From NCBI GenBank assembly GCA_000092065.1, contig CP000598.1: 64,000 nucleotides of DNA; one strand, given 5' to 3'. A model generated the notes under the pieces. The model did no database searches, was not told the origin of the DNA, and worked only from the letters and a program-made list of their open reading frames with translations. Origin of the DNA: Ostreococcus lucimarinus (taxonomy: Eukaryota). A program made the translations under genes and the position numbers. Positions 5,331-64,000 of this stretch are shown here, one piece after another. Within the stretch, counting starts at the first letter, position 1; the number at the start of each line of letters is the position of its first letter.

Positions 5331-5669
5331 ATGGTGTCGTCCGGCGACGCCGACGTCGACGACGCGGTCGAACGACGCCATCGGCGCGGTCGCGGTCGCG
5401 CCGTTCGCGATCTTCTGCCGTCGTCCTCGGCGGCGCGCGCGAACACCGTCCCGCCGTTTGAAGCAACCGGTCGAGGCGCGCTCCCGAGGTGGTTTTGCAA
5501 GAGCTGTCGGAAAGCGCTCGACGTGTTTCGTGATTTCGACGGGGAGCTGAAGACGTGTCGACTGTGTTTGCGCGCGCGCAAGAAAGACGCGAAACGCAAA
5601 CGCGCGCTACGGCGGGCGGACGCGAAAAGGTCGGGCGACGGCGACGGTAAAAAAGGCGCGGCTTCGTAG
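5331..5669 (+). CDS. small basic Cys4 zinc-ribbon-like protein (speculative)
   Basis: About 112 aa from the ATG at 5331, with 'WFCKSCRKALDVFRDFDGELKTCRLC' (CxxC-x17-CxxC) and a Lys/Arg tail. It lies in a very GC-rich block where long ORFs arise by chance. Confidence 0.2.
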   Translation: MVSSGDADVDDAVERRHRRGRGRAVRDLLPSSSAARANTVPPFEATGRGALPRWFCKSCRKALDVFRDFDGELKTCRLCLRARKKDAKRKRALRRADAKRSGDGDGKKGAAS

Positions 5670-23795: not shown

Positions 23796-24307
23796 GTATG
23801 CTTGCGACTATTGAGTTTTCGACATGCTGATGATTTCTTCGTACAGGGCGTCCCACGCCGCCGGAAGCGCTCGCCCGCACTTATCGAGAAGAGTGTACGG
23901 ACAGCGGACACCCATGGCAACATTATTCACGCGTATCGGACGCAGATCTGCATCAAACAAATCTTTATTCAACGCATAACGATTTACTTGCCGCTGCTGC
24001 ATGGTCACTTCTAATTGACCGATGCGTAGGACCTCCTTGAAGTTTGGAGTCTCTGTATGCAAGAACATCGTGTCGCCGCAGTCGCCCAAAACGCCAACTT
24101 CCACATAACTCTGCGCTCTCAAAATCGAGCGGACGTCCTCCTTCGGTCGCGCGATGGTGAAAATGTGAACCTATAAAACCGCGCGTGTGCGTCGTACGAC
24201 GCCGAAGTGCTAGTAAATGTTGCCCACTCCGACTGCACCGGTCGTTCTCACGCGTCCATCGACGCCGATACGCGCCGCGTCGCGGTATGCGTTTATCGAA
24301 AAAGTCT

Positions 24308-24361
24308 GAATGACCCCCTGAAATTTCAGGGGGTCTATGAGTCACTAGACCCCCTGAAATG
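24308..24361. repeat. nested palindromes (CCCCCTGAAATTTCAGGGGG; the left arm of a roughly 62-bp palindrome disrupted by an LTR insertion)
   Basis: Read directly. The right arm 'tctgacatttccagggggtc' lies at 24571-24590. Confidence 0.6.
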
Positions 24362-24393
24362 TCAGATACTTTCTAGACCGTCTAGAAAGTGTC

Positions 24394-24567
24394 TGCGAGC
24401 TATACCTTATAAATTGTGATCAATCGGGCCTAGTGCGTCGATAAGTGATGATGATTACAAGGAGCTATCATTGATTAGTTCATTAATGAGTGTTAACTCG
24501 TCAATTAGTCATCCTAGGTTAACTAGGGGAAGCTATACTTCATATTTTACTCTTCAGATTTCTAACA
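24394..24567 (-). mobile_element. solo LTR of a copia-like retrotransposon (5'-TG...CA-3') flanked by a 5-bp target-site duplication GTGTC
   Basis: 174 bp, about 95% identical to the LTR at 55885..56059 (shared 'caatcgggcctagtgcgtcgataagtgatgatgattacaaggagctat...ttcagatttctaaca'). GTGTC is present at 24389-24393 and at 24568-24572. Confidence 0.6.
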
Positions 24568-24687
24568 GTGTCTGACATTTCCAGGGGGTCGAATCAGTAA
24601 GATCCGTGTTCATGCCTAGAGATTTGAGCGCTCGGTGACAGCGGCAGCTTCCTGAAACGCTCCTCCAGACCCGGACGAGAGCGAGCC

Positions 24688-25674
24688 GTGAAGCCGTGCG
24701 CAAAAGTTCGGCGGTCGTCGATAGGTCTGGCAACGTCGGTCATGCGTTGGTTGAGGGGACGTGGTGTCAAGGCGATAATGTGCGTCGCCCTTGTCGCAGG
24801 TTTCGCCAAGGTACCAGATCTGCACGTCAATAAGTATACTATGACACAGACACTGCAAGGCGACGGCTTTGGTTCACAGTTTCAAAATATCACATCTACC
24901 GCGGCTGCTCTGCACGTCAATAAGTGTACTATGACACAGACACTGCAAGGCGACGGCTTTGGTTCACAGTTTCAAAATATCATATCTACCGCGGTTTTCG
25001 CTCAAACCTTGAACAAACACTTTTGCGTGACCCCTATCGAAAGCATGGAGCACAACTACGACAATCGCTCAACGTTCCTTCGAGAAGTCAGCGAACTGAT
25101 TAATTTACCAGTACTTTCAAGTCAAGAGGACATGGACATTGAAAAGTGCGAGGTTAAAAAAGGCTGGCTGGATAGCTACATAGTTCAGGAAGCAAATCAG
25201 TTGGACGTTCGTACAAAATTGGGTAACATTCGAAAGCAGTTCTTGGGTAACAAGCGCTCGTTGTCGGAACTTCGTAAACACGCTGCCGTGCACATCAGGA
25301 GGCAGAATTCTTTTGATAATCGAAACACTGTTTCTCATGATGAAGTCGTGTGCTTTGTGATGAGGGAAATTCTCACTCAAAACAGCAATATTCAGTTTCA
25401 TGTATTTAGCCAGGGCGATATTTCGGAGTTTTGGCGCTACCAGAACGATTCAAGAATCGTCCTACGTCTCGACGAACCCATCAACGTGACGTTCACTGAA
25501 ATGGTTGTCGCCAAAATTTTGGTCACAGCCACGTCGTCATTTAGCTATGCAGCAGCACTTCTCTCAGAGGGTGAGATATGGGCCCCAAGACCGTTCTGGC
25601 ACAACTACCCTTCCTTCTGGAAGACATATCAGCTTTCTCGTACATTGTCTAACTTTGAGACATGCCTACCATGA
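24688..25674 (+). CDS. GT11-like alpha-1,2-fucosyltransferase-like glycosyltransferase carrying an internal in-frame tandem duplication
   Basis: 'LQGDGFGSQFQNIISTAVFAQ' matches GT11 motif I (GGLGNQMFQYAFA), and the C-terminal 'ATSSFSYAAALLS' matches the (S/T)TFS..A motif. There is an N-terminal TM. Confidence 0.5.
   Translation: MKPCAKVRRSSIGLATSVMRWLRGRGVKAIMCVALVAGFAKVPDLHVNKYTMTQTLQGDGFGSQFQNITSTAAALHVNKCTMTQTLQGDGFGSQFQNIISTAVFAQTLNKHFCVTPIESMEHNYDNRSTFLREVSELINLPVLSSQEDMDIEKCEVKKGWLDSYIVQEANQLDVRTKLGNIRKQFLGNKRSLSELRKHAAVHIRRQNSFDNRNTVSHDEVVCFVMREILTQNSNIQFHVFSQGDISEFWRYQNDSRIVLRLDEPINVTFTEMVVAKILVTATSSFSYAAALLSEGEIWAPRPFWHNYPSFWKTYQLSRTLSNFETCLP
24821..25000. repeat. 2 x 90-bp tandem duplication inside the GT11-like CDS (in frame, duplicating motif I)
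   Basis: 'tgcacgtcaataagt[a/g]tactatgacacagacactgcaaggcgacggctttggttcacagtttcaaaatatca[c/t]atctaccgcgg' occurs twice, at 24821 and 24911. Confidence 0.8.
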
Positions 25675-26986
25675 TACCAGTTTTAATTGTGGGGTGTTAA
25701 TGCTATCGTTTGTGAGACACACTCGAGCGCCCTGTAGACTACTCGACTCTATCGCAGTACAAGTTCAGACAACACCAGGCAGAGGGCGTAGGCTAAGCCC
25801 CTTTTGCCCGTTCCCTCTGCCGCACTCTAAGAGCCTACTGCTGTCACAATGGTGCACGCGCTAGTAAGTATATTTTTCCTTCGGGGGTAACCTAGGCGAG
25901 TTTTTCTTATTCTAAAGCTAGTTAGTCAGAGTACTTTTTTATTTTGTGATGGTGACCGAATACAGCGAACACGGTGAAGTCGTCACGTGTGCAAGTCAGT
26001 GGCAGTGGCGGGTTAATGACTTTTCTAGATGAATTCTTTAGTTTGTACAATTCATTGGACATCGATGACCATGTTGATTGGCAGATGTTTAGCACTGCAT
26101 TACACGAGTACGTGTTGCTGCTTTGAAAACAATCGGTGGTGACGATTTGTGAGACGAAACAAGGAGCGTATATCTGTGACGTCAGAATACGACGATGCAC
26201 GGCATAACATCTTGGAAATTGAGCGCACGTGAACTCTCTGACATAGCACTGCATCGCAAGAATCTCTTAGTCGTCGTTGAGCGTTGTAAAACACCACACG
26301 CGCGTCAGCGTACATTGTCTGTACAAACTGTCAAATTGTGATTGCGTGAGTACTTTGACGCTCAAGTGAAATCGAAGAAAAAATCCAGGTCCAACATGTT
26401 ATTCAAAACAACTTATTCATGCGTGTAAGTGCATGCAATGGCCGAAAGAGTCAGCGTTGCGGAATCCAGTCAAAGCAAGTTCAGGCTTCCTCAAAACGTT
26501 TAACATAATTTTTTGAATTCTATTCCCGGGTCCATTGGGCGTGAGGGTCGGCGCCACGTTTGCGAAACAGTCAAAATCACGCATGTCGACGAATCATGAC
26601 TCATCACGCAGTCCCTCCGCCCCAGCATGATGTTCTGAAATCTGTGACGATCTTTGACGACCGAGTGCGCCGTCGACACGTGCTGCACACCGCTGGAAAT
26701 CGGTGAACGATGTTAAAACGAGTGTTGAACGCGTGATCGTCGTTTCACAAGCGCGTGCACGGGTCGTGTGCGATCGCTCGCTCATCAGATGACGCATTTC
26801 TGAAAATGGGCGAAATAATGTGCGTGTATGTAACCAGTCACTAAAGTGCCTACCTAGGTTACGATTTTGTCAGTTTCGGATCAAAACCGATTGCTGATGG
26901 TGATCTTGATTATGAGCGCGCACAGAGCTGATTCTACCATCATAACGAATCATCCTGACACTTTCTTCACCACGAACTGTCTGTCT

Positions 26987-27958
26987 CTACAACCCCTGGC
27001 AGAGCACTTGAGCAACATGCCGCATGTGGCGAAATCGCATGTTCAAGAATAAATCGTCGGCGCAATCATGATTCAAACCTCTTGGGAGGTATTCAAAGCC
27101 CAACGAGGTGATAAAGTCGCGAAGTTCATGCTCGCCATGCTGATCAGCGTAGCCGGTAACCACTAGCTCCGGTTGAATCCAGACAACTCGTTTCGATAGC
27201 CAATGCCGAGCCCCTTTGATAATCTCTAAGTCATGGCCCTGTGCGTCAATCTTCAACATGTCGATATATTGGACGCGGCCACCTTGAACACCTAGAGACT
27301 CTGACTTTGGAACTGACACGGACCAAGGCAGAAGGGTAAAGAAATCATGAAGATTCCAAACAGGGACCTGAATTTCATTCTGCACGTCAAACTTGACCGG
27401 TTTGTGTAAGCTTGATGTCCCTGGATCACCAGCGGTCGCGTAAAATGTCTGCAAGTGTAGAGGAGAAGAGCCCATCGCCACACAAGATAAAAAGTAGCGT
27501 TTGCCAACTAAGTCCAACGGCACACAGAGGTCTCCTGTGGAGCAAGCACAACCCTTCAGTATGTTCTTGCAACTTGTCGGATTAGGCTCAAACGCAAAAA
27601 CTGTCAGCTGATCCGGATCGGAAGTGCTGCTGAACCATAAGGCGGAGTTTGGAGCGTTGTAAGACTCACCAATAGATATTTTCACACGCCGCGTATGCCT
27701 CGGCAGTGCAATTTTTCCACGCCGCAGGTGCACTGGAAGTAAGGCACGCGTGGCGTGACGAGTGCGCGAGATATCTTTGATACGTTCGGCCCCTACGAGT
27801 GGATCACTTTTTGGTTCTTCACAGCTACTCCCAAGTGAGTCGCTGTACGATTCAGTCACAGGAAGTCCGCGTGCTGACGCAAACGCAAGGAGTACGAGCG
27901 AACCCAGCGAACCGAGCAAACAGCCCGCAACCAACCTAAATTTCATACTGAATTTCAT
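26987..27958 (-). CDS. FkbM-family methyltransferase, type II membrane topology
   Basis: 'VFAFEPNP' and 'IDMLKIDAQGHDLEIIKGA' are FkbM motifs. The probable start is the Met at 27958 ('MKFSMKFRLVAGCLLGSLGSLVLLAFA', a signal anchor). The track ORF extends to 28195, but its first 79 aa look non-coding. Confidence 0.5.
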   Translation of the reverse strand: MKFSMKFRLVAGCLLGSLGSLVLLAFASARGLPVTESYSDSLGSSCEEPKSDPLVGAERIKDISRTRHATRALLPVHLRRGKIALPRHTRRVKISIGESYNAPNSALWFSSTSDPDQLTVFAFEPNPTSCKNILKGCACSTGDLCVPLDLVGKRYFLSCVAMGSSPLHLQTFYATAGDPGTSSLHKPVKFDVQNEIQVPVWNLHDFFTLLPWSVSVPKSESLGVQGGRVQYIDMLKIDAQGHDLEIIKGARHWLSKRVVWIQPELVVTGYADQHGEHELRDFITSLGFEYLPRGLNHDCADDLFLNMRFRHMRHVAQVLCQGL

Positions 27959-28694
27959 TCTGACAGGGACTCGCACGTTCTCGTGTCGCTTAAAGCCCGT
28001 ATTTTGCTCCATCTCTTCGCGGTCTAAATACTGTATAAAGTGGGTGTGTAGTACGCTCTTTTCCGTTCTTCGGCCTGGGTGTTCAGTATGCTGTTTCCGG
28101 TCTTCAGTTTCTTCATCTCGACGGCTTCGGGGCGACCACTTTGGCCGGCGACGAGTTTGCCCTGTACCATAGGACATCGTGGCCGCACACAGCATTTCGA
28201 GGCCTATATATTATAATATCTCTTGTTTTTGTCAGAGGCCTATTTCTCAGAAACATCGTGTCCTTATGCGAAAATGAGGTGGATTAAGAGATGCGAAATT
28301 CGAAAATAGAATCGGCGATTTATTCCGATAAGGGCCGTTTTTTCCCACATCGGAATGAATCGGGCCTTTGTATTCCGAAAAGATACTTGTCAAAATAGCG
28401 CGACTCGTCACGTGACGAGTTAATTTTAGGGGGTCCTATTCCGACAACGCTATTCCGGCTATCTCTTTTGAAAAACTAGCGACGCGAAATGAAGACGCGC
28501 AGTCGCCCCACTAGTGCGCGTCACTTGTTGAACTCGTTCTTCACCGAACGGGGTTTTAAAGACGTACATGTGTCCTCAGGGAACCGCATGCGGATTGTCG
28601 TCGATCTCCTTTGACCTCGGACGCTGAGGCCTCGGACCTTAAAGTCCCCGCTTCCGACGTAAAAAGTTCTGTCAGTGCGAGTTTTAGCCACGCT

Positions 28695-30980
28695 ATGAAC
28701 TGGAGACTGAGTATGTCGGAGTCGAAGTCGTTGTTGATTCTTCTCGTTGCATATGCATTTTGCAGCTCGACTCTCTTGATTCTCAATAAAGTTGCGTTGC
28801 AGACCATAAACTCGGGTACATTTTTGCTCCTACTACAGTGCGTGTTCACTTGTATGGCTCTTGGGACTCTCGACCATTTTGGATTTACTTCGGCTATTTC
28901 GCCTCTGGAGGCAGCCGAGCGCGAGCGATTTACTGTGGTGGTTGCCCTGTTCGTGACAACTCTATTTGCCAACATGAAATGTCTACAACTCGCAAACGTC
29001 GATACCGTTATCTGTATCCGCATGACGTGTCCTTTGTTAGTGAGTTTGCTCGATTATCTCTTTCTTGGAAGGGAGCTGCCCACTCGCACTTCAACCCTAG
29101 CATTGGTTGCAACTTGTGTGAGCTTTGCCTCATTTTTACTCGTTGAACAGAACTCTTCATGGATCACAATATTTTGGCTATCATTTTGGTACTGTGCTAT
29201 GGTATTTGAGACCGTATTCGTCAAGTTTGTTGTCAGTGACTCGTCGCTTTCAACAGCGGCACAGTCCTTCTATCAAAATTTACTTGCGATCCCGGTGTTG
29301 ACAGTGATATGGTTTTCCACAGAGATCCCAACTAGTGTTTTTGAACAAATTTCTTTGTCTACTTCGGAATTCTCCTTGGTTCTGTCCACTTGTATTCTCG
29401 GGTTAGGGATGAGCTACTTGTCGTTTGCTGTGCGTGAACGGGTATCGGCGACGAGCTTTTCAATGCTTGGTAATACGTGCAAGTTGATAACAATTCTAAC
29501 GAATTATTTACTATGGGAAAAACATGCTACAGGTGTTGGAACTTTTGCAGTCCTTTTCTGTCTTGCATCCAGTACCTTTTATCGCCAGGCGCCGTTGCGA
29601 CATCCTATTAATCATAAGGCGCAGTCATGGTTTCCCGCCCCTTGTACCATCAAGGCTACTGAAGAAGTCAATATGAGGATCATTGCAGCTGGGTTACTCG
29701 GTATCCTGGCGCTTGGCTTGCACTTTACTTCATATTTTCGTAGTTCTGTGAACTGGAACCTTGAAGAACAAACAGGTGTTTCTGGCGTTTCAGGAAAATT
29801 ATTTACTGGTGCACAAGTGCGGCAGTATTTTCCTTCGCATGACGATCGTCCTTCCAAGAAAAATCGTTCGACCTCTTCTCCCTTCTTTTCTGATCATATG
29901 TCTTGCGAAAATTGGGCCGTTTGTACCACCATCTTCGTCGAGTCAGACGCAGTGCGTGACGTTTGTAAAATACTACCGTCGTACTGCCTACTTGTCGTCG
30001 CAGATAAGAAAGGTCCACTAGAATACTTCATCGACGGGAACTGCACGTTCGCATACTTATCTGTAGAGCAACAAGAAGACATGTTAACAGACTCAGACTT
30101 CATCACAGAAACGCCGTGGAATCACTTTGGGCGGAAAAATCTAGGGTACTTGTTTGCAATAGCGAATGGTGCGAAGATGATATGGGATTTTGATGATGAC
30201 AATCAAATAATCAGTTCAAAATTTTTTCTCGATCAGGCAGGAGAGCACCAACTAGTTACAGTCGAACCAATTACTTCGATGCTGAATCCTTACCCCTTAC
30301 TTGGTGCCGAAAAGTTTTCCTGGCCTCGTGGTTTTCCACTCGACGGTATAAAAAACGAGGCATCACAACCAAGCGTTGACGATCTACGAGTTTCTGTCGT
30401 CGACTTCGAACGTGTCGGAGTACTGCAATCACTGGCGAATAATGATCCAGATGTTGATGCTATTTACAGGCTTCAGAGAGACCTGCCTTTCAGCTTCAAA
30501 GGCTGGTCGAGTCCTGCAAGTGTTTTCGTTTTGCCAGGCGCTTCTTTTGCTCCCTGGAATGCTCAAGCCACCCTTTTCAGGATGCGGGATGCACTCTGGG
30601 TTTCGTATTTACCTATCTCTATTCATGGTAGGGTATCTGATATATGGAGATCATACATAGCGCAGCGACTTTTGCGGAACGTGTGTATTCACATCGCCTT
30701 CGCTGTGGAGCCACTTGTTGTGCAACATCGAAATCAGCATTCCTACCTTGCCGATTTCGATGCGGAGCAAGATTTGTATTACAAATCAGGTAAACTGATC
30801 GAGCTTCTTGGAGAGTGGACCGCAAAATCTTCCTTTCCTCAAGAGCAGATTGTGGAGCTCTTCAGGATTCTGTATGAACATGATTATGTTGGAATCAAAG
30901 ATGTTCGAATGATCGAACTCTGGATTTCAGAGCTCAACCGAGCGGGATACATCTTTCCAAAGAGCTGCAGTGTCCGCTAG
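28695..30980 (+). CDS. fusion protein: an N-terminal TPT/NST-type nucleotide-sugar transporter domain joined to a C-terminal STELLO/DUF288-like glycosyltransferase domain
   Basis: The first roughly 330 aa contain about 10 TM helices (drug/metabolite-transporter-like). After an extra TM ('IIAAGLLGILALGL') comes 'NHFGRKNLGYLFAIANGAKMIWDFDDDNQI', which matches the STELLO-like (DUF288) W..KN.GYL.AI..GA..I.D.DDDN motif. The 2.3-kb ORF is uninterrupted within AT-rich sequence. Confidence 0.55.
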   Translation: MNWRLSMSESKSLLILLVAYAFCSSTLLILNKVALQTINSGTFLLLLQCVFTCMALGTLDHFGFTSAISPLEAAERERFTVVVALFVTTLFANMKCLQLANVDTVICIRMTCPLLVSLLDYLFLGRELPTRTSTLALVATCVSFASFLLVEQNSSWITIFWLSFWYCAMVFETVFVKFVVSDSSLSTAAQSFYQNLLAIPVLTVIWFSTEIPTSVFEQISLSTSEFSLVLSTCILGLGMSYLSFAVRERVSATSFSMLGNTCKLITILTNYLLWEKHATGVGTFAVLFCLASSTFYRQAPLRHPINHKAQSWFPAPCTIKATEEVNMRIIAAGLLGILALGLHFTSYFRSSVNWNLEEQTGVSGVSGKLFTGAQVRQYFPSHDDRPSKKNRSTSSPFFSDHMSCENWAVCTTIFVESDAVRDVCKILPSYCLLVVADKKGPLEYFIDGNCTFAYLSVEQQEDMLTDSDFITETPWNHFGRKNLGYLFAIANGAKMIWDFDDDNQIISSKFFLDQAGEHQLVTVEPITSMLNPYPLLGAEKFSWPRGFPLDGIKNEASQPSVDDLRVSVVDFERVGVLQSLANNDPDVDAIYRLQRDLPFSFKGWSSPASVFVLPGASFAPWNAQATLFRMRDALWVSYLPISIHGRVSDIWRSYIAQRLLRNVCIHIAFAVEPLVVQHRNQHSYLADFDAEQDLYYKSGKLIELLGEWTAKSSFPQEQIVELFRILYEHDYVGIKDVRMIELWISELNRAGYIFPKSCSVR

Positions 30981-31357
30981 CAAGGTTTAGGATCGGTAAA
31001 AATAAAATTACACGCGTGTCGGTATTCGTTTCGTCGCTTCCGTCGGTTGCGCGCCACCGCTGGGCATTTGAAGTTAGCACTTCTCGATCGCCACGCGCGC
31101 GTTGTGGCGTCGTCGCGACTTATTAGCACTTCCGACGGCGCGCACGTATTAGGGACGTGGAGTGGAATACATACGTAGTTTTCTAATAACGAAAGAAGGA
31201 ATTCGACTCACAAATAAAACAAGTCATGAACACAAACACTTGGACGCGATGCGATGAACCGCAACGACCGTGGACGCCGTGTGGCTCACGCGTCGTATAT
31301 AGCACTTCGCTTCTCTCAACGACGACAATGAGAACCGCGGGAGCATCTACTTGTTTT

Positions 31358-32602
31358 TCACTCTGGAAACAAGGTACGCGTTTTTCTTCTCCAGTGCTTC
31401 AAGATATCGGCAATTGTGTTTGTGATGTTTGGGTCAGGAATCCACCCCGTCAGCTCTCGTATTTTCCTATTATCTGACAAAAGTATCTTCTCATCGTAAA
31501 GCCGCTCACGTGCACCATCAAACAGCGTCGTGATGTCTGGTCTTGTTGACAGTGAAATCGCTGTGTCTAGGATGTCCTTCATTGAAAGTGCGATGCCACT
31601 ACCGATGTTGTACGACTCTCCAGGCTCTCCAAGGTCTACAAGTTTCGTTACCACTCGTGCAGAATCGCGGAGGTCAGTTATGTCCCTTTTTGTGGTAATG
31701 CGCCCATGTCTCACCACTGGGCTTTGCAATCCGAGCTCGATCATTGCTATCTGCCGACAAAACTCTTGAGGTGCGAGACTCTCAGTCCCACCCGCTGAAA
31801 CTTGGATAAAAAATCGAGCGGTGACGACGTGCATGCCGTGGCTGTGCACATATTGCTGAGCAAGTAGGTCTGCTGCAACCTTGCTTACTCCATAAGGAGA
31901 CACGGGCGCCAATGGTGCTTCTTCAGGTATGGCCCCTTCCCACGTATCAGCAGTTTTTCCATATTCTGTGCTTGAACCAGCCAGCAGAAAGCGCGTTTTG
32001 TTGGAGAGTCCTGCAAATCGCACTGCTTCTAGCATGTTGAAGGTGCCTTTGATGTTGGTATCTAAAGTCAGCTCAGCGGAGTCATATGAAACCCCGTTGA
32101 TTGCTTGTGCAGCAAAATGGAAAATAACTGTTGGGCAGATTTCTGCGACCACCTGTTTGACACGAGTTCCGTCCAGAATGTCTCCACGAACGAGCTGTAT
32201 GTTGTTCAATTCGCCTGCCAAATTTGACAGGTCAGATCGGTATCGCACAAGACCGTGAACCTCATACTTTCCTTCCTGTATCAACTGTTTCACAACGTAG
32301 CTGCCTATCATTCCAGACACACCTGTCACGAGAGCTCTTGGTCTTGCAGATAGAGCACTCAAGCAAGGCGTGTAATCTTTACTCTTTGCATTAAGATTTG
32401 TAGCAAAAGAGGATTCCTCACGGTACATATGAGTTTTTGAAGGTTGAACATTGTATCGTGAAGTAACCGGGCTTGAAAGTCCTGATTTGAATTGCACAGC
32501 CTGATATGACGGATGTAACACAACAGCTGCTAAAACAAACGATGAAACAGCCAATATTCGTGCAGTCTTTCCCAGCGTGTGCTTGAAGCGACTGTCGCGC
32601 AT
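31358..32602 (-). CDS. NAD(P)-dependent nucleotide-sugar dehydratase/reductase of the extended SDR family (GDP-mannose 4,6-dehydratase/RMD-like), with an N-terminal membrane anchor
   Basis: 'LVTGVSGMIGSYVV' is a Rossmann GxxGxxG. 'YEVHGLVRYRS' resembles the GMD motif 'YEVHGIVRRSS'. 'GSSTEYG' and the 'YGVSK' YxxxK catalytic pair are present. Confidence 0.65.
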   Translation of the reverse strand: MRDSRFKHTLGKTARILAVSSFVLAAVVLHPSYQAVQFKSGLSSPVTSRYNVQPSKTHMYREESSFATNLNAKSKDYTPCLSALSARPRALVTGVSGMIGSYVVKQLIQEGKYEVHGLVRYRSDLSNLAGELNNIQLVRGDILDGTRVKQVVAEICPTVIFHFAAQAINGVSYDSAELTLDTNIKGTFNMLEAVRFAGLSNKTRFLLAGSSTEYGKTADTWEGAIPEEAPLAPVSPYGVSKVAADLLAQQYVHSHGMHVVTARFFIQVSAGGTESLAPQEFCRQIAMIELGLQSPVVRHGRITTKRDITDLRDSARVVTKLVDLGEPGESYNIGSGIALSMKDILDTAISLSTRPDITTLFDGARERLYDEKILLSDNRKIRELTGWIPDPNITNTIADILKHWRRKTRTLFPE

Positions 32603-33083
32603 AGATAGCTGTCCTTAGCAAGTGATGACTATGTTATACTTCGAAGGTGTGCGGGACAAAATTCGCGACTGCCCTTGAGCGGCACGGAATGAGTTCAACA
32701 AGTGAGGCGCGCTGGCAGGGCGACGGCGCGCGTATACGTGTCGCGTCTCTTCATTTGCCATCATTTTTTATGTACAGTACAAGGGGGCTAGTAGTACTTT
32801 AGTAAAGTAATTGTACTAATTGTAGTCATGATTGGTCGTTGTGCAGCATTGAGTCATGATTCGTCGTTTTACCCCTCCCAAACGTTGGCGGTATTTAGCC
32901 AGATCCGAATGTACACAGTCAGACGGTCGCTCTTGGGTCATGACTTGTCAAATGGGCTCAAAAACTCGCCCCGGCCGTGATCACCACAATGCCCTGACGC
33001 TCACTTTTTCGCTCAAAACGCTATCCTATGCCAAACGATGCCCGCACAACGGAGGACGCAGTCAAACGACTACAAACACTAGC

Positions 33084-34277
33084 ATGGCGTCCGTAGCGTC
33101 CGTTATCGCCGCCAAGCGCGCTGGCTTCATCGGTATGGGTCGTCTGGGATTGTGTACCGCCCTCAAGTTTGAGCAAGCGGGTTGGGATGTCTGTGGGTCT
33201 GACGTCTTTCCGTCGTACGTTGAAAGTATCAACGACAAGAGTCTTCGAAGCAAAGAGCCCGGAGTCGAAGAGGCTTTGCGAAAGAGCACGCGTTTGCGAG
33301 CGACTCTGAATCTCCTTGATGTCCTAGAGCATGCCGATATCGTTTTCATTCTCGTCGCGACTCCAACCAGCGCGGGCGAAGAGGCCTACGACACGACAAC
33401 TCTGAGCAGGGTCTTGAGTGATATCGCTAAATTAAGGCCGACAAACAAACACATCGTGATTTGCTGCACAGTGTTGCCTGGTTACATCTCGAACATCGGT
33501 AGTTACCTTATCGAAAGTTGCACTGGATGTAGTTTGAGTTACAATCCAGAGTTCATCGCCCAGGGTGAGATCATGAAGGGCCTCAGTGAACCCGACGTGG
33601 TGCTCATAGGGGAAGGAAGCGAAGAAGCCGGTGATATTCTACAGTTTTTATACGAGACCGCGACGTCCAATGAGCCTCGGATCTGTCGCATGTCTCCGCA
33701 AAGCGCTGAGATAATGAAACTAAGCGTAAACTGCTTTGTTACCACGAAGATCAGCTTCGCCAATATGATTGGTGACATTGCTGACGCGACGCCTGGTGCA
33801 GACAAATTCGACATCCTTAGAGCCGTTGGTCAGGATACACGTGTCGGCCACCGGTGCATCCTTCCAGGTTACGGCTTCGGAGGTCCTTGCTTTCCACGTG
33901 ATAATAGAGCACTCGGAATGTACGCACGCAAGGTTGGAATCACTCCTTCAATTTGCGACGCGACGGATGAATACAACCGACTTCACGCGGACGCCATGGT
34001 AAAGGCTCTTTTGGAACAAAAACTAGAGCATTATACCATCAGTGATGTTGCTTACAAGCCACAGTGTCCGGTGGATATTATTGAAGAGTCGCAACCACTC
34101 GAAGTGGCCAAGAGACTTGTTCAAGCAGGCAAGCGAGTCGTTATACGCGATCGACCCGCCATCATCGAGCTCGTACGCCGCGCTTACGGGCGTATGTTTA
34201 CCTACGGAGCATACAAAGTACCTAACGAAGAACCAAATACTTCTGCTGGCAACCCGTTATCAAGCTACGCGAGGTAA
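33084..34277 (+). CDS. UDP-glucose 6-dehydrogenase-family nucleotide-sugar dehydrogenase
   Basis: 'GFIGMGRLGL' is the NAD-binding GxGxxG. 'GYGFGGPCFPRDNRALG' is the catalytic Cys motif (canonical GFGGSCFPKD). The three-domain layout matches the UDPG_MGDP_dh family. The track ORF starts at 32856, but the first in-frame Met before the Rossmann fold is at 33084. Confidence 0.8.
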   Translation: MASVASVIAAKRAGFIGMGRLGLCTALKFEQAGWDVCGSDVFPSYVESINDKSLRSKEPGVEEALRKSTRLRATLNLLDVLEHADIVFILVATPTSAGEEAYDTTTLSRVLSDIAKLRPTNKHIVICCTVLPGYISNIGSYLIESCTGCSLSYNPEFIAQGEIMKGLSEPDVVLIGEGSEEAGDILQFLYETATSNEPRICRMSPQSAEIMKLSVNCFVTTKISFANMIGDIADATPGADKFDILRAVGQDTRVGHRCILPGYGFGGPCFPRDNRALGMYARKVGITPSICDATDEYNRLHADAMVKALLEQKLEHYTISDVAYKPQCPVDIIEESQPLEVAKRLVQAGKRVVIRDRPAIIELVRRAYGRMFTYGAYKVPNEEPNTSAGNPLSSYAR

Positions 34278-34446
34278 GCTCAACCATGTTCACGTTTCAA
34301 CGCTGTCACCAACTCACCGCGTGTCTGATGCGCTGGTGGCCAGATCTTTTGATTTAATATCTATCCATGATATAATCACAGATCTTTCACATCTTAGCCA
34401 CCGTGCTCGTCGTTTCCTCGGATCTCGCACGAAGTTGAGATAAATT

Positions 34447-34686
34447 TCATGTATAAATTACTCACCCTAATATCATACTGCATACACTTTAAGTGCGTCG
34501 ATAAAGAGCTTTGAGGTCGTGACAACGGCTGGAATCTACGAACCTGTTTCACGCATCAAAGTCCACCATGCTTTGAACCCTGCGGTTTGTGGCGCGTGAT
34601 GAGCAAGTAGCAAGTGCCACCCAAACCTGCGTTCTATGGTGCGCACGAGAGCATCCGGCATAGCCGCGAACCACGGCTCTTTTTTG
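34447..34686. repeat. dispersed repeat family B, copy 1 (a longer copy lies at 39543..40078)
   Basis: 'catgtataaattactcaccc...ctgcatacactttaagtgcgtcgataaagagctttga...gaaccacggctc' has high identity to 39590-39620 plus 39860-40078. The start motif 'ccttcgggggtaacctaggcgag' is also found at 25876. Confidence 0.6.
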
Positions 34687-34976
34687 TATGTGTACGATGT
34701 ATATGATTTGTATGTGTATGATTTGTTCGGGCGTTTTTTCCTTCGACTAATTTTGTCATCATCATCGAAACGGAACGTTTAATTCGAGCTCTCCACATTT
34801 TAGGGCTAATTTTGGGAAAAGTGTGACTGTCCATGTATAGACACAACACCAAACTCGATTAAAAAGCTCCTCAAAAAATGTGCGGGAATTGTCTCGAGTG
34901 TGTGGCGCTTGCGATTGTGGCACGCGTTGAAGCGACTCGCGGTACGGCACGTACGTAGTCTTGAACACGAATATAT

Positions 34977-36575
34977 GTGAATACGATTCACGTTCGAACG
35001 CTCTTGGAGTTGCGCTTCGACATGCTACTGAAAGTAGCTTGCGATTCCGGTACTATGGCTCGCCGAACGGTCATTCTGTTTGCGGTTGTGGCCGTGTTGC
35101 TTTGGAGACTGTTCTTGTTCGATATTGGTGACAGCAGATTTAAAAGTATCACACCACATCCATCACCGGAGCAAAGACGACAACAAAATCACCGAGCAAG
35201 ATTTTTAGAGCTCACACATAACGAAACCTACAAAACCGCAAATGTCGAAGAGAGGAACGATGAACATTTCAAGATGGAACGATATGAAGAATCACCTGCA
35301 AGATTACAAGCGTCAGCTAATTTGGATACACAGAGCACCCGCGTCTTGGTTTTAAGTTGGCATGGTGGTACCGCGAAAGACACAGCGATGCAACTTCATA
35401 ACGCTGGAGTTCGTCGCGAAAATATCGTGTGTGGAGGCATTATTTGGTACGAGAAAGTCCTCGATTCTGCTCCTTGCGTAAGAGATCATGCATTATCTGA
35501 GGCTTTGAATCGATTGACACAGCGTGTAAGAGGTTTTCCCATGGCTATCGATCCAGCAGACGAGAAATGGTTGGATGATTTCGCAGCTGAGGCTAGCGAG
35601 ATGCTATCTACGTTCCATGTGCTCTGGGCGGACTTTCCTACCGCCCTTTGTCTTCTATTAAACAAGATTGCCCCACATAAATTGATAGTACGCACAACGC
35701 ATCGTTTTGATCACCAGGTGGCTCATTCGAAGATAAATCACACGTCATTTGTACGTAAAAGCCTCATGCGCGTTCTACGCGAGGCGCCAATACTTCTTGC
35801 TGGGAGCGAGTACGATCGGGCATACATGAAGTTCTACACATGTCGTGAACCTGAACGTCTATTCATAACATGGCCAACACAGTATTTGGAGAGTTTGGGC
35901 GCATCGCGTACACTTACGAACGAGTCATGCTTCATCTTGTGGGGGGGGTCGAACAACGAAGGTAGTTCAAGCATATCGATTACATTTGATAGAATACGAG
36001 TCCTCGGGCGCACTATGGAGTCACAAGTTCCCATGAAAAGTCGCCCAACGAGTTTTGCTCACGCTTCGGAATTTGCAACAGAGCAAGCCGTAGTATATTT
36101 CCCATACAGTATGCCGAGTTCCGCATTTCATGAACTTTACGCGAGTGGTGTCCCCCTTTTCGTGCCATCGTTGACTTTCATGCTCGATGAGTTTTCAAAA
36201 AACCGTGGCTATCCTCACAAAGTAGCTGGTAATGTCCCTTGTGCTTCACCATCTTTTTACGAAAACGCTGAGGCAGTGGAGTTCTGCTGTCTTGACGATA
36301 CTGGGGTATGTCATGATCCAAATTCATGCGATCCTGAAGCGCTGAAACAATGGGTATCATTAGGTGACCTTTACACCACCCCGCATGTGACGTATTTCGA
36401 CAGTGCCGAGCATGCTGTGGAACTCATGAGCAACTGGATGAAGCATCCAGACCAACGGGATCGAACGATCGAGGACATGGAGTCACACAACGTTGCTAAC
36501 CTTCGATGGAATGCTCGTGTCGTTCAAGCCGCAATTCGTCATGTCAAACAAAGCAGCGCGCTTGAACTGGATTGA
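34977..36575 (+). CDS. putative type II membrane glycosyltransferase (GT-B-like C-terminus)
   Basis: 'RRTVILFAVVAVLLWRLFLF' is a signal anchor. The C-terminal 'VVYFPYSMPSSAFHELYASGVPLFVPS' resembles the GT1/GT4 donor-binding E...G.P motif. The last roughly 47 codons are duplicated at 40078..40213. Confidence 0.4.
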   Translation: MNTIHVRTLLELRFDMLLKVACDSGTMARRTVILFAVVAVLLWRLFLFDIGDSRFKSITPHPSPEQRRQQNHRARFLELTHNETYKTANVEERNDEHFKMERYEESPARLQASANLDTQSTRVLVLSWHGGTAKDTAMQLHNAGVRRENIVCGGIIWYEKVLDSAPCVRDHALSEALNRLTQRVRGFPMAIDPADEKWLDDFAAEASEMLSTFHVLWADFPTALCLLLNKIAPHKLIVRTTHRFDHQVAHSKINHTSFVRKSLMRVLREAPILLAGSEYDRAYMKFYTCREPERLFITWPTQYLESLGASRTLTNESCFILWGGSNNEGSSSISITFDRIRVLGRTMESQVPMKSRPTSFAHASEFATEQAVVYFPYSMPSSAFHELYASGVPLFVPSLTFMLDEFSKNRGYPHKVAGNVPCASPSFYENAEAVEFCCLDDTGVCHDPNSCDPEALKQWVSLGDLYTTPHVTYFDSAEHAVELMSNWMKHPDQRDRTIEDMESHNVANLRWNARVVQAAIRHVKQSSALELD

Positions 36576-36800
36576 AAATGCTGGTCGATACAAAGAAGCT
36601 GTGGGGGCGATACTTTGGACATCGTATTCAATATCTTACTTGGCGTACCTCGCCATGTAGAGTCTCACGCCTAGCGTATGTACGCGAAGTGAAAATAGAT
36701 TTGAGTTTTCATTTAGTGTAACTCGATAGCGGGTTTTCCATGGTGGTGTTCGGGATGGGCGCTACTCCCCCTGCCGTAGTATCGCATATTTCGTAATCGA
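36436..36800. repeat. segmental duplication unit (second copy at 40078..40440)
   Basis: A roughly 365-bp near-identical copy covering the 3' end of the 34977..36575 CDS and its downstream sequence. Confidence 0.85.
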
Positions 36801-37431
36801 ACAACTGCCCGTACGTTCCTCGCACTAAGTGAACAATCGCCACCCGGTCGAAAACTGTCACTTTCTTCCCCCGTCGCACGAGTCGTTTCGCGATTTCGAG
36901 CAGCTGGGACTCTTCGATGATATCCACAGGACAATTCGATTCATATGCGACGTAGGATACCTTACACCTATCGAGATCTAGCCAGGTAACACCGTGCCTC
37001 AAATCATCAAGTGTTTGTTCTCGGGGTTCAAGTCGCTAATATCACTCAAAAAACCGACTGAGCGCGCTTGTGTCGTACGCTTGATCTCCAGAGTCAGTGG
37101 GCGTGGCGACGAGGATGAAGACCATATCGACGCGATCGATCACTTCACGCAGCTTTAAAGTTGCGCGCAGATGTTTGCTCGATCGAAGCGCTTCCTCGAC
37201 TCTTGGCTCAGTCAAACGAAGCGTGATTTCGTTGATGCTGTCCACGTGCGCCGGAAAGACATCCGAACCAACGATATCCCAATCAGCTTGTTCACACTTG
37301 AGAGCCGTACATAGTCCGAGTCGGCCCAGACCGACGAATCTGGCGCGCGTTGTTTGCAAGATCGATCGAGTGGTAGCCATCTTCGCTCTGCGACGTTGCA
37401 ACGTCAGAGACGGCGACTGGCCCAAGATCAC
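36709..37431 (-). pseudogene. UDP-glucose 6-dehydrogenase paralog, internally deleted (N- and C-terminal fragments only)
   Basis: The 129-aa ORF 'ARFVGLGRLGLCTALKCEQADWDIVGSDVFPAHVDSINEITLRL...FILVATPTDSGDQAYDTSALSRFF' aligns to the N-terminus of the 33084 gene. The 97-aa ORF '...CPVDIIEESQLLEIAKRLVRRGKKVTVFDRVAIVHLVRGTYGQLFDYE...NPLSSYTK' aligns to its C-terminus. The central catalytic domain is missing. Confidence 0.7.
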
Positions 37432-37652
37432 TCCACTCTCTTAAAGCATGTCTCTTTCTGGACTTTATTATCCCTGGTACTTTGTTAGGTATATGTCGTA
37501 GGAACGCAACCGCGGACCACAGCCTCGGTGTTGACTCACCACTGCTTTCCTCTGCGTCGAAACTACCGCAACAACGCTCTTGACACGCGCACTAACATTA
37601 AGTACACCGGTCGTGAGCGACGCCATGCGCGAGTCGAATGAGTTCGTGAAAA

Positions 37653-38298
37653 CGTTTTACGATGATCGCCCTTGTAACATTCGGCTCGAAGGAATACTTT
37701 GAAGAAGTGACGCGGCGTAAATATTTCGTCGAGAACCACACTTTGGCATTCGCAAGTCTCGACGCGTACGAAAACAATCTGTTCTCGAGGTTGGTTGCGG
37801 TATAGGGACCGCGACACAAAGTTTTACTGAAGCTGGCGCGGTTTACACAGGCATCGACGTTTCCTTGCGAAGTGTAGAACTCGCTGAGAAGCGACTCAAA
37901 CTGTTCAAACTCAATGGTGAGGTGCGCGTTGCAGATATACAGACCGATGAATTCATGCACGACCATTTTGATCCTCTTTTTAGTTTCGGAGTTCTGCATC
38001 ACATCGCCGATGTACAACCCGCCGTGAAGGATATTTCATGACTCTCAAACCGGGAGGCGAGTGCAAGCTGATGATGTACGCAAATAATTCTTGGAAAAAA
38101 ACTTGGAAAAAGACTTTCGTCGACTCGGGATTGGACCAATTTGAACCACAATCTGGAGTTCCAATCACTCACACTTACAAAGCCAGTGTCGTGCAATCAT
38201 CAAGCTCGTTTGTGAAATCAAACTCGAGCGATCGTCGTCGACCGTCCGCGCTCGCCGAAGGGTGCGGGCGCAACGCAGGTGAGAATTCGCCCCAGTAG
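37653..38298 (+). pseudogene. class I SAM-dependent methyltransferase with at least two frameshifts
   Basis: Frame 1 reads 'MIALVTFGSKEYFEEVTRRKYFVENHTLAFASLDAYENNLFSRLVAV*'. Frame 3 reads 'VLEVGCGIGTATQSFTEAGAVYTGIDVS...DPLFSFGVLHHIADVQPAVKDIS*' (motifs I, post-I and II). A third frame gives 'LKPGGECKLMMYAN' (motif III). The frame changes are near 37790 and near 38037. Confidence 0.55.
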
Positions 38299-39364
38299 GC
38301 GCTCAAGTCGTTATTCGAGTACCAACGCACGGTTTCCGCGAGACCGACGTCCCAGGACTTTTCTTGTCGCCATCCGAGCGCTAAAAGCTTTGAGCAATCG
38401 ATGAAATATCTTCGGTCGTTGAAGGCTCGATCGCTCACGTGCTCGATGGTCGTTTCCGGGTCGCGATCGAGGAGCTTACAGACATCCCGAGCGACGGACA
38501 AGATCGTCCGCTCTTCGCGCGAGCCGATGTTATAAATCTGCGCCGTCGTCCCGCGGTGGAGAATGACATCGAACGCCGAAGACGCATCGTCAACGTGCAT
38601 GTACGAACGCGTCGCGTCGCCGTCGCCGTGTATCGAAATCTTTTCCCCGCGTTTCGCGAGGATTGAAAACTTTGGAATCGCCTTCTCTGGATACTGATTC
38701 GGCCCATACACGTTGTTTCCGCGAGTGATGATGTACGGTAGTCCGTACGAGCGTCCATACGCCATGACGAGCATCTCCGCGCCCGCCTTGGTCGCGGCGT
38801 ACGGGTTGGTGGGCGTCAGGAGCGACGCGTGCTCGGTGTTTGAATCCATGAGATTTTCCCCGTATACCTCATCCGTGGACACGTGCAGGAATCGTCGAAT
38901 TTCGGTCTTCTGCGCTCGCACGCACGCCTCGAGTAACGCGTGCGTGCCCTCGATGTTATTCTTCGTGAACTCGTACGAGTTCCCGAAAGAGTTGTCCACG
39001 TGACTCTGCGCGGCGAAGTGCATGACGGTGTCGATGCGCTCGCTTTGCAAGACGTAACTCAATAAATCGAACGAACGCACATCGCCCTTGACGAACCGCA
39101 CGTTCGCGCATTCTTTCGCGCGCTCGAGATTTTTCAAGCTCGAGCAATAGTCGAGCTTGTCCAGGATGACAATCTGTCGAGCGCGACGAGTCGTTCGCGG
39201 TCAGTCGTTCGCGCGAGAGATGGGTGCAAAGTCCGTGCGTTGTTCGACGCACGCGCACGGGGTCGAAATCGTGCGCGCACCGTGTACTCGGGATGCCTCG
39301 ACGCGAGGCGCTCGGCGACGTGCGAGCCGATGAAGCCGGCGCCACCGGTGAGAAGGATGCGCAT
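38175..39364 (-). CDS. UDP-/dTDP-glucose 4,6-dehydratase (RmlB/RHM-type), two exons: 39281..39364 and 38175..39173
   Basis: Exon 1 is 'MRILLTGGAGFIGSHVAERLASRHPEYT' (GxxGxxG). Exon 2 is 'IVILDKLDYCSSLKNL...HFAAQSHVDNSF...YAATKAGAEMLVMAY...NVYGPNQYPEKAIPKF', the hallmark of 4,6-dehydratases. Splicing restores the conserved '(Y/H)PEY-x-IVxLDKLDY' junction. Confidence 0.8.
39174..39280 (-). other. spliceosomal intron (phase 0, GT..AG, 107 nt) of the 4,6-dehydratase gene
   Basis: On the minus strand the intron begins GTGCGCGCAC and ends ...CTCGACAG. Removing it joins 'HPEYT' in frame to 'IVILDKLDYCSS'. Confidence 0.7.
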
Positions 39365-39542
39365 GCGGGCGGACGGGCGTCTCGGTCGAGCGCGTCTAGA
39401 TTTTCGCAGATTATCTCGACGACATGCTCGCGAATACCGCGCGCGCCTCGAGGGCGTTCGCGAGTGCTGCGCGCGATGTCCACGCGACGCCGCGCCTTTT
39501 GACGCCACTCGCACCGGCGCGCAGAAAACGAACGGCGGTTCG

Positions 39543-40078
39543 GCGGGGCGCGAAAGTGATTACTCCTTCGGGGGTAACCTAGGCGAGCTTCCCGTATTCA
39601 TGTACAAATTACTCACCCATATATCATACCTGGTATTGATCCGACACGCGTCAGAGATAACGGGGAGAATAAAACCACAGAAATTCATGTACACGCGGCA
39701 CTTCGACAAAGTCTTTCGATCGTTAAAGCACTGGTGACCCCTCTACCCTCCACGTTCTGTCAGAGGCTAGTTCTGTGAGTCTCTCAGTCTGTATTCTTTT
39801 ACACCGAAGGTCGCTCCGAGGACGAAACTATCTTGTGTTTATTTTTGGATCTGGTCTACTGCATACACTTTAAGTGCGCCGATAAAGAGCTTTGACTTCG
39901 TGACAACGGCTGTCATCTACGAACCTGTTTCACGCATCAAAGTCCACCATGCTTTGAATCCTGTGGCTTGTGGCACGTGATGAGCAAGTGCCACCCGAAC
40001 CTGCGTTCTATGGTGCGCACGAGAGCGTCCGCACGAGAGCATCCGGCATGGCCGCGAACCACGGCTCTTTTCTGGATG
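39543..40078. repeat. dispersed repeat family B, copy 2 (longer)
   Basis: It starts 'ccttcgggggtaacctaggcgag', as at 25876, and contains 'catgtacaaattactcaccc' and 'ctgcatacactttaagtgcgccgataaagagctttga...gaaccacggctc', matching 34447..34686. Confidence 0.6.
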
Positions 40079-40213
40079 AAGCATCCAGACCAACGGGATC
40101 GAACGATCGAGGACATGGAGTCACACAACGTCGCTAACCTTCGATGGAATGTTCGTGTCGTTCAAGCCGCAATTCGTCACGTCAAACAAAGCAGCGCGCT
40201 TGAACTGGATTGA
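39968..40213 (+). pseudogene. duplicated 3' gene fragment (C-terminal 47 codons of the 34977..36575 glycosyltransferase)
   Basis: The 81-aa ORF ends 'WMKHPDQRDRTIEDMESHNVANLRWNVRVVQAAIRHVKQSSALELD', which differs by 1 aa from the C-terminus of the 532-aa protein. The sequence upstream of it is repeat B. Confidence 0.7.
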
Positions 40214-40440
40214 AAATGCTGGTCGATACAAAGAAGCTGTGGGGACGATACTTTGGACATCGTATTCAATATCTTACTTAGCGTACCTCGCCGTGTAGAG
40301 TCTCACGCCTAGCGTACGTACGCGAAGTGAAAATAGATTTGAGTTTTCATTTAGTGTAACTCGATAGCGGGTTTCCCATGGTGGTGTTCGGGATGGGCGC
40401 TACTCCCCCTGCCGTAGCATCGCATATTTCGTAATCGAAA
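40078..40440. repeat. segmental duplication unit (copy of 36436..36800)
   Basis: Near-identical over about 363 bp. Identity stops at 'cgtaatcgaa' in both copies. Confidence 0.85.
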
Positions 40441-40450
40441 AGTTAACGTG

Positions 40451-40533
40451 CCCATCGAGTACTAATCAATGATAGCTACTTGTAATCATCATCACTTATT
40501 GACGCAGGCCCGATTGATCGCATAGTATTAGGT
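40451..40533 (+). mobile_element. truncated, degenerate LTR fragment of the copia-like family
   Basis: 'actaatcaatgatagctacttgtaatcatcatcacttattgacgcaggcccgattgatcgcatagtattaggtatagctcgca' matches the 3' half of the LTR at 55885..56059 in reverse orientation. Confidence 0.45.
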
Positions 40534-41006
40534 ATAGCTCGCATTTCGAAAATAATGTATGAGGGTAAAATAATGAATTTAATTAACGTCGACGTTTGTC
40601 GCGCCGTCGCGCGCCACTTCGCGCCGCGCGCGCGTCCGGGCGGCGCGGAGTCAACCGATGTTTCCGCGTATCGTGATATCCGACCGTTTAAGTTTGAATT
40701 CTGTGCGTGGGTGTTGACGGAACACGACCGTTGGAGCTCGATGGGCACGTTAACTTTTGGGCCAGATTCTGTCGCGTATGACGCACCCTCGCGCGCGCCG
40801 AAGCGCGTCTCCGACCGTGTCGACGGCACGGAAAGGTTGTAAGAAGGCTTCTCAGCGATCTTCAGCCTCGCTGGGAGGAGCAGAGGCAACGACGGCTCCC
40901 GCTTGCGACGACGAAGACTGGCGCGCTCAAGTGGCCAAAGATGCTCGTGAGGTTGCCGTTTCTTTGCTCGCGAACAAACGTCGCCGGGAGGTTTCTGTTT
41001 CTGATA

Positions 41007-41210
41007 CTATACTATACTTAGGGCTAGCTCATTCAGGCGATGTGAAACGTCCGTGACGACGCGCTCATACGTAAATTCTTGCATGAATGCGCGAGCATTT
41101 GCTGTGATTTCACGCAACCTCGTTAGCGATTCGCCATCGGTGTTCGCCACAATCTTCGTTTTCTCAGCCAAATCGTGCAAATCTTCGGATATTCCGATGA
41201 AGTGTATCAC
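41007..41210 (-). pseudogene. C-terminal fragment of a GT90 (CAP10/POGLUT-like) glycosyltransferase paralog
   Basis: 'HFIGISEDLHDLAEKTKIVANTDGESLTRLREITANARAFMQEFTYERVVTDVSHRLNELALSIV' is about 90% identical to the C-terminus of the 48623..49828 protein. No upstream catalytic region is present. Confidence 0.7.
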
Positions 41211-41423
41211 ATCTACTAGCTTGTCGCTGTAAGTGATCGATTTCTAAAAAAGTTGCACGAGGTAAAAACACCCCGGCGGAGTCCTCACCCTTTACCCATA
41301 CTCTTGAGTCATGAACGGCCAAAACCGAGCTAAATTTAGCGAAGCCCGGGCGAACCACGATTCATTCCTCCGTGAAGGACGTCCGCGTGCCCGAAGATTC
41401 CGACGCCAGCATACATCGCGGAG

Positions 41424-49828: not shown

Positions 49829-49854
49829 TATTAAATATTACGATCTAGCGACAA

Positions 49855-63837: not shown

Positions 63838-64000
63838 GGTTTAGGGTTTAGGGTTTAGGGTTTAGGGTTTAGGGTTTAGGGTTTAGGGTTTAGGGTTTAG
63901 GGTTTAGGGTTTAGGGTTTAGGGTTTAGGGTTTAGGGTTTAGGGTTTAGGGTTTAGGGTTTAGGGTTTAGGGTTTAGGGTTTAGGGTTTAGGGTTTAGGG
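63819..64000 (+). repeat. telomere: about 26 x TTTAGGG (plant/green-algal type), G-rich strand running 5'->3' to the window end
   Basis: Perfect tandem heptamers from 63819 to the end of the window. Confidence 0.95.

Follow-up and report, generated by a model that had tools for sequence, protein, structure and literature searches.

A polymorphic Ty1/copia-type solo LTR within a palindrome at a putative gene-cassette junction of Ostreococcus lucimarinus

Solo LTRs of the Ty1/copia group (Pseudoviridae) are characterised by TG…CA termini, by a 5-bp target-site duplication (TSD) and by the polymorphism of empty and filled sites, and they derive from elements in which homologous LTRs bound an internal region with a polypurine tract (PPT) and a pol gene, the integrase domain preceding the RVT_2 reverse transcriptase. 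The 5-bp duplication is made by the integrase of these elements. Short inverted duplications of a different origin are produced by fold-back, or snap-back, synthesis: in yeast, templated inverted duplications of ~5–34 bp arise by fold-back at double-strand breaks (PMC11724301), and comparable products are described for SD-MMEJ in Drosophila (PMC5728401). At the scale of whole chromosomes, the available parts of the studies on O. tauri chromosome 19 (PMC5082852) and on O. mediterraneus (PMC13390643) describe the small outlier chromosomes of the Mamiellales as low in GC, rich in transposable elements (TEs) and in glycosyltransferase and methyltransferase genes, and subject to large indels and cassette swaps between close relatives, with LTR elements at rearranged sites. 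These chromosomes have been linked to antiviral resistance, and the mechanisms of their rapid structural change are poorly known.

The window, namely the whole stretch of 64,000 nucleotides of O. lucimarinus contig CP000598.1 that was analysed, contains an LTR-interrupted palindrome whose neighbouring genes encode a nucleotide-sugar transporter, FkbM-type methyltransferases, glycosyltransferases and epimerases. The window belongs to chromosome 18 of strain CCE9901, the small outlier chromosome. Its gene setting matches the one given for Mamiellales outlier chromosomes in the available parts of the two studies (PMC5082852; PMC13390643), which deal with large deletions and translocations and with long inverted repeats; at a finer scale, those parts do not describe a short palindrome that is interrupted by an LTR exactly at a cassette junction. 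The components of the locus, a copia solo LTR, a repair-type inverted duplication and the turnover of a cassette on an outlier chromosome, all belong to kinds already known, and the locus is a well-resolved example and no new class. What it adds is a palindrome whose centre is a structural-variant junction on a hypervariable chromosome.

The insertion and its duplication occupy the following positions:

24389–24393, no strand: left copy of the TSD, GTGTC, present once only in the empty-site contigs L150, L151 and L154
24394–24567, minus strand: solo LTR of a Ty1/copia retrotransposon, 174 bp, whose sense strand is the window minus strand (5'-TGTTAG…CTCGCA-3')
24568–24572, no strand: right copy of the TSD, GTGTC, on the same basis as the left copy

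The first-pass annotation had called a 174-bp solo LTR with GTGTC on both sides and had proposed looking for the site without the LTR in other strains. Both the coordinates and the 5-bp TSD are borne out by the sequence and by natural empty alleles. Contigs with the fucosyltransferase-like (FucT-like) gene that lies downstream, or with its upstream neighbour, were drawn from metagenomes and read archives, and three independent samples (contigs L150, L151 and L154, from JGI 3300026465, ERZ27294866 and ERZ27294867) have one GTGTC and no LTR; they read GTCTAGAAAGTGTCTGAAATTTCCAGGGGGTC at the site and …GTCTAGAAAGTGTCTGAAATTTCCAGGGGGTCGAATCAG… across the junction, and downstream of the site they are 98–99.8% identical to the window. 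The LTR is present in ten samples (L001, L002, L003, L152, L153, L155, L156, L157, L167 and L168), a count that takes in contigs starting within the LTR and running into the right arm of the palindrome. Furthermore, position 24576 is polymorphic, with C in the filled and A in the empty alleles. Since the empty sites carry a single GTGTC, both insertion and duplication are proven. The LTR insertion is real and so recent that it is still polymorphic in nature, and we regard it as practically certain that it is genuine together with its TSD. A scan of the GTDB genomes with a 25-mer of the empty site gave no match, as expected for a prokaryote collection.

The 174-bp element belongs, as a solo LTR, to a Ty1/copia family. 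As read and sliced directly from the sequence, it runs TGCGAG…TAACA on the window plus strand, and other copies of it are found in the window at 55885–56059 (97% identity), at 58412–58563 (98% identity, 22 nt missing) and, as a half copy, at 40461–40543 (88% identity), while in contig L139 the 3' LTR that follows a full-length 1320-aa pol is 92.5% identical. In an alignment of nine LTR copies, all those of full length share the TG…CA termini, and in the window as well as in metagenome contigs, copies that are 92–98% identical adjoin a PPT and an RVT_2 pol gene. In internal copies the PPT AGAGAAAGCTAAGGAGGTG lies directly 5' of the LTR, so that the LTR sense strand is the window minus strand. 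In particular, the 640-aa minus-strand open reading frame (ORF) abutting the LTR at 55885 matches RVT_2 with E = 1.2e-43, and in the 1320-aa polyprotein of L139, a relative of the window pol, an rve match is listed ahead of RVT_2. The element differs from typical Ty1/copia solo LTRs in that its LTR is very short (174 bp), and the family differs in that the copies recovered here do not include an intact one with two LTRs, the contigs breaking inside the LTR. As a transposable-element finding, the solo LTR is routine.

The other copy of the family in the window is rearranged:

55885–58563, minus strand: 5'-truncated, rearranged copy of the same copia family, with the RVT_2 match given above and a 619-bp inverted duplication

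The last 619 bp of this copia (pol C-terminus, PPT and LTR) are present at 55908–56526 and at 57945–58563 as an inverted duplication of 100% identity with a spacer of 1.4 kb, which may have arisen recently by a fold-back rearrangement or else be an artefact of the assembly. Another inverted arrangement is found in L140 (7770–8069; also in L142, L146 and L149), in which two LTRs of an 80%-related copia family stand head-to-head and form a ~300-bp inverted structure right after the pol gene. In L165 (9706–10100), and only there, a leader of ~150 bp and then the start of a new gag (MSEAF…) come after an LTR, so that either two elements in tandem share this LTR or the assembly wraps around at the join; the sequence adjoining the LTR, TCGTACGATTCTGCC, is unlike the usual tRNA-iMet primer-binding site. 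This copia lies beside housekeeping genes (2-oxoglutarate dehydrogenase), so the region is not of the outlier type.

The sequence into which the LTR inserted is organised as follows:

24312–24335, no strand: P1, a perfect 24-bp palindrome, GACCCCCTGAAATTTCAGGGGGTC, made of the outer 12 nt of the arms
24348–24378, no strand: left arm of the long palindrome, found in the LTR-bearing haplotype only and absent from L150, L151 and L154
24379, no strand: palindrome centre (C), also the point at which the haplotypes H1 and H2 diverge
24380–24393, no strand: centre-proximal part of the right arm, before the LTR, common to all cassette-carrying haplotypes
24573–24590, no strand: distal part of the right arm, after the LTR and the second TSD copy, delimited by the sequence and by comparison with the empty alleles

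When the LTR and one GTGTC are removed, the site reads GACCCCCTGAAATGTCAGATACTTTCTAGAC-C-GTCTAGAAAGTGTCTGACATTTCCAGGGGGTC. A near-perfect palindrome of roughly 62 bp had been predicted for the restored site; the palindrome is there and measures 64 bp. Its two arms (31 and 32 nt), reverse complements of each other but for one mismatch and one 1-nt indel, flank a single central C at 24379. The further palindrome that had been noticed ahead of it corresponds to the perfect 24-mer P1, which joins the reverse complement of the arm's outer 12 nt to a direct copy of them and is separated from the long palindrome by a 12-nt spacer, TATGAGTCACTA. The whole cluster can also be described as four copies of a unit of ~18 nt, GACCCCCTGAAATKTCAG, in alternating orientation. 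With a minimum arm of 10 nt and a maximum loop of 8 nt, the 64-kb window contains four perfect hairpins, three of them in the palindrome cluster (mean in shuffled sequences, 0.83), and the restored site, folded as single-stranded DNA, reaches –42.2 kcal/mol (z = –11.5 relative to shuffles); the cluster is thus far beyond chance. Where the right arm is interrupted by the LTR, its inverted copy in the left arm runs on without a break and is free of LTR sequence, which indicates that the palindrome would predate the LTR. An Rfam search gave no family covering the palindromes, and the reading as a known structured RNA is unsupported. A Helitron 3' hairpin was considered and rejected: CTAG does follow the hairpin at 10–12 nt, yet the next base is A, not T, and there is neither a 5' TC end nor a family. 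The literature gave nothing specific on MITEs or palindromes in Ostreococcus. Palindromes occur in two related contigs: L166 carries at 5102–5566 a MITE-like element of 465 bp, which is bounded by 27-bp terminal inverted repeats (TIRs; GGCCGACTAAGAGCACCGTAG…), contains GATAACTTT iterons and, at its centre, a perfect palindrome of 42 bp, and abuts a truncated copia, and L139 carries at 4430–4500 a homologous 40-bp perfect palindrome, 70 bp past the copia 3' LTR.

Comparison among the recovered contigs distinguishes the LTR-bearing haplotype of the window (H1) from two others, H2 and H3, and brings in three further features:

23808–24166, minus strand: 3' stump of a methyltransferase gene (703-aa FkbM-type, intact in H3), with a small minus-strand ORF at 23808–24122
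24167–24311, no strand: GC-rich orphan filler of 145 bp, between the end of H3 homology and P1
24742–25674, plus strand: FucT-like gene, first of the cassette, 100% identical to XP_001422303.1 (O. lucimarinus CCE9901)

In H2 (L150, L151 and L154), homology to the window starts at GTCTAGAAAG (24380), that is, exactly at the symmetry centre. The 561 bp recovered on the left of this point are unrelated to the window left of the centre and match neither the rest of the window nor the other fetched loci; they lack both the left arm and the 24-bp palindrome. This left flank contains iterons, namely three copies of GTACCAGCTC, three of CGGTTCTCGCG and a 19-nt doublet that abuts the junction; the ACCGG at the junction is part of this 19-nt repeat unit of H2 itself. 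From these alignments, the palindrome centre very probably coincides with the haplotype breakpoint. H3 (five samples, L158–L162) carries the upstream gene and is collinear with the window only to 24166, beyond which it has the intact methyltransferase gene (703 aa) and a UDP-glucose dehydrogenase gene, until homology to the window resumes near 36603. Since H3 homology stops at 24166 and resumes at ~36603, the interval from 24167 to ~36602 is a 12.4-kb cassette replacing ~2 kb, and the site would be the left junction of a glycosylation-gene cassette of ~12.4 kb that truncates the methyltransferase gene, taking the place of most of it as compared with H3. The cassette end reads GTCTAGAAAGTGTCTGA…, and the segment unique to the window's haplotype is 24167–24379, comprising the 145-bp orphan (which matches neither the flanks nor any of the fetched loci significantly), P1, the 12-nt spacer and the left arm. 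None of the retrieved contigs has the complete palindrome without the LTR.

Other structural variants affect this cassette. L002 lacks 32780–40543, a variant that ends at the half LTR at 40461–40543, and L167 joins 26607 to 32937 (26608–32936 missing), which makes three large presence/absence variants (24167–36602, 26608–32936 and 32780–40543) relative to near-identical metagenome contigs; cassette content thus differs among wild genomes that are ~98–99% identical in shared sequence. On a smaller scale, 45 bp right of the palindrome, L151 (615–640) and L154 have CTAGAGAATCTCTA in place of ATGC (~24612–24617 in the window), a polymorphic and independent change that creates a 17-bp palindrome, AATCTCTA-C-TAGAGATT, and has the form of a templated inverted duplication. 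Inside the FucT-like coding sequence, a 90-bp in-frame tandem duplication (30 aa) lies at 24819–24994, and wild alleles have one or two 90-bp copies (268/280/298 vs 310/328 aa).

The account of the whole site that we favour, and to which we give slightly less than an even chance, is that a copia element inserted into a pre-existing palindrome which was itself the scar of a fold-back or template-switch junction; the palindrome would thus be a junction scar and not a mobile element. A broken end would have been repaired and joined, and fold-back or template-switch synthesis would have copied the cassette's own end, the left arm (31 nt) and P1 (2 × 12 nt) being short templated inverted duplications of it. 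A Ty1/copia element integrated 10–14 bp right of the centre of the 64-bp palindrome, a 5-bp staggered cut by its integrase duplicating GTGTC, and recombination between its two LTRs would have cut the once-complete element down to a solo LTR, leaving the duplication intact. The scar is favoured because the inverted copies are short (31 and 12 nt), lie beside their template and are found at a junction with filler DNA; the two lengths fit the range of ~5–34 bp reported in yeast (PMC11724301). In addition, the junction joins sequences that are non-contiguous in other haplotypes, H3 ending at 24166 and H2 beginning at 24380, and a local propensity for events of this type is suggested by the micro-duplication of L151 and L154, by the 619-bp inverted duplication and by the head-to-head LTRs of related contigs. 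The H2 junction has a 6-bp palindrome, ACCGGT, and the arm contains GAAATTTC; the observed centre, GAC-C-GTC, is 1 nt off the simple prediction. The likeness to the fold-back duplications of yeast and Drosophila (PMC11724301; PMC5728401) lies in inverted copies of 12–31 nt that adjoin their template at a junction of unrelated sequences, with a second small polymorphic example 45 bp away. The differences are that the event is deduced here from natural haplotypes and not seen as a repair product, and that the junction shows no clear priming microhomology and includes two pieces that count against a scar: the 145-bp orphan beside the palindromes, which is not templated from the flanks, and the 12-nt spacer, for which the scar model has no explanation. 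Moreover, a C of the right arm is missing from three of the four repeat units, so copying in one step needs extra mutations. The nearest other homologues for the locus are proteins of ~50% identity, which provide no outgroup for the palindrome; the direction of change between H1 and H2 is therefore unpolarised, and H2 could be derived by breakage or insertion at the centre.

That last possibility leads to the reading in which the palindrome, whatever its origin, is old and fragile, H2 being the derived state: a cruciform or hairpin at its centre was cut, or another element inserted there, the right half was joined to unrelated sequence, and the LTR in H1 is an independent second event. We consider this rather unlikely, although the breakpoint falls exactly at the symmetry centre, where centre-break models of palindrome instability predict it, only one event per lineage is needed instead of two in H1, and the iterons of the H2 left flank could be the end of another repeat element. 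Against it, H2 has no left arm within 561 bp upstream, no contig carries the complete palindrome minus the LTR, and the position of the junction ACCGG inside the 19-nt unit of H2 suggests native continuity and not a fresh insertion end. The proposal of the first-pass annotation that the cluster belongs to a MITE or foldback family takes here the form of an element of ~100 bp with 13-bp TIRs (GACCCCCTGAAAT) and a GAAT target duplication, into which the LTR landed. Such elements are likewise small and nearly all palindromic with terminal inverted repeats, and in fact GACCCCCTGAAAT and ATTTCCAGGGGGTC stand at the outer ends with GAAT on both sides, the ~18-nt unit is repeated four times in alternating orientation, the 24-bp palindrome resembles an internally deleted derivative keeping only the termini, and palindrome-centred MITE-like elements do occur in related Ostreococcus contigs (L166 5102–5566, with its 27-bp TIRs). 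The proposal is not supported, however, and we consider it decidedly improbable: the cluster is single-copy in the sequence covered, with no other copy in ~150 kb of Ostreococcus sequence (the 64-kb window and ~90 kb of non-redundant related sequence, a sample with which up to roughly 100 copies per genome are still compatible), it has no similarity to the real MITE-like family of L166 and L139 (score within shuffles), and H2 has exactly half of the unit, the right arm, and not all or none of it. The match of the 4-bp GAAT flanks has a chance of 1/256, and GAAT fits no consensus of the superfamilies with 4-bp TSDs, such as TTAA, nor is it TA. A scan of JGI metagenome contigs and of IMG/VR with the 16-mer CCCCCTGAAATKTCAG, a pattern too short for this use, gave 120 and 15 stretches, nearly all of them chance or bacterial-terminator-like; the related match was L116 only, the same contig as L002.

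Two further readings concern what the palindromes do and leave their origin aside. They could be a functional cis-element (a protein-binding site, an insulator or a terminator) of the FucT-like gene or of its upstream neighbour, the LTR then being a regulatory mutation. The site is intergenic between two same-strand genes, 150–430 bp upstream of the FucT-like ATG, which itself lies 175 bp downstream of the LTR, and the right arm is kept in all haplotypes with this gene; nevertheless, H2 does without the left arm and the 24-bp palindrome, the identical protein (P0055) is encoded on both haplotypes, no Rfam family matches and no similar motif stands upstream of other window genes, which makes a cis-element very improbable. 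Relative to the downstream gene the LTR has an antisense orientation, and a promoter of its own would point away from that gene. The other reading, at which the first-pass annotation had hinted and which is compatible with any origin of the palindrome, is that the copia integrase of this family prefers palindromes prone to form hairpins or cruciforms. As judged from the sequence, attraction of the integrase by such a target is possible; as an explanation of the site, we hold it to be unlikely. A mismatch-tolerant finder detected hairpins scoring at least 14 at only three loci in ~150 kb (the window and non-redundant loci), and all three are within 0–100 bp of a copia or LTR boundary: besides the window site, they are the 40-bp palindrome of L139, 70 bp from the 3' LTR, and the 42-bp palindrome of L166, 92 bp from the truncated copia, the proximity of the last two having a chance of ~3e-4 as estimated from locus lengths and given one palindrome per locus. 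Retroviral integration, furthermore, is reported to be more frequent near some non-B DNA motifs, inverted repeats among them (PMC9962126), which speaks in the same sense. The sampling weakens this evidence, in that the loci were chosen for their copia content and the window site for its palindrome; the palindromes of L139 and L166 form one MITE-like family, and ordinary nesting of TEs in tolerated regions explains both; in these two loci the copia is beside the palindrome and not inside it; and five other boundaries (55885, 58563, 40543, L165 and the L140-type loci) have no palindrome nearby. The window site represents one insertion event, from which alone a structure preference cannot be shown. 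Targeting of tRNA genes as in Ty1 is rejected, there being no tRNA gene in the window. The broader claim that the copia family of Ostreococcus has a preference for integrating at or next to long palindromes able to form hairpins or cruciforms, fold-back scars thus becoming landing pads, appears to us even more doubtful; if true, rearrangement on the outlier chromosome would be coupled to later TE accumulation, and the connection of copia with palindromes would have to hold across the genome to be of wider interest.

Under the favoured sequence of a repair scar followed by an insertion, the locus would add modestly to the evidence for a contribution of fold-back or template-switch repair to the hypervariability of outlier chromosomes. 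It offers a base-resolution view of one cassette junction, in which a truncated gene, filler DNA, inverted duplications and a later retrotransposon are all segregating in the wild, and a marker that can be tested by PCR, based on three haplotypes and on the presence or absence of the LTR.

Some other repeats were observed elsewhere in the window. A 368-bp direct repeat of 97.5% identity is found at 36434–36801 and 40072–40439, and fragments of a UDP-glucose dehydrogenase pseudogene lie at 36709–37431, paralogous to the intact gene at 32856–34277 and to the gene of H3. An inverted repeat pair of 229 bp, 90% identical and with copies 8.4 kb apart, is present at 41004–41232 and 49603–49831, and a 56-bp tandem repeat at 63818–64000 runs off the end of the window.
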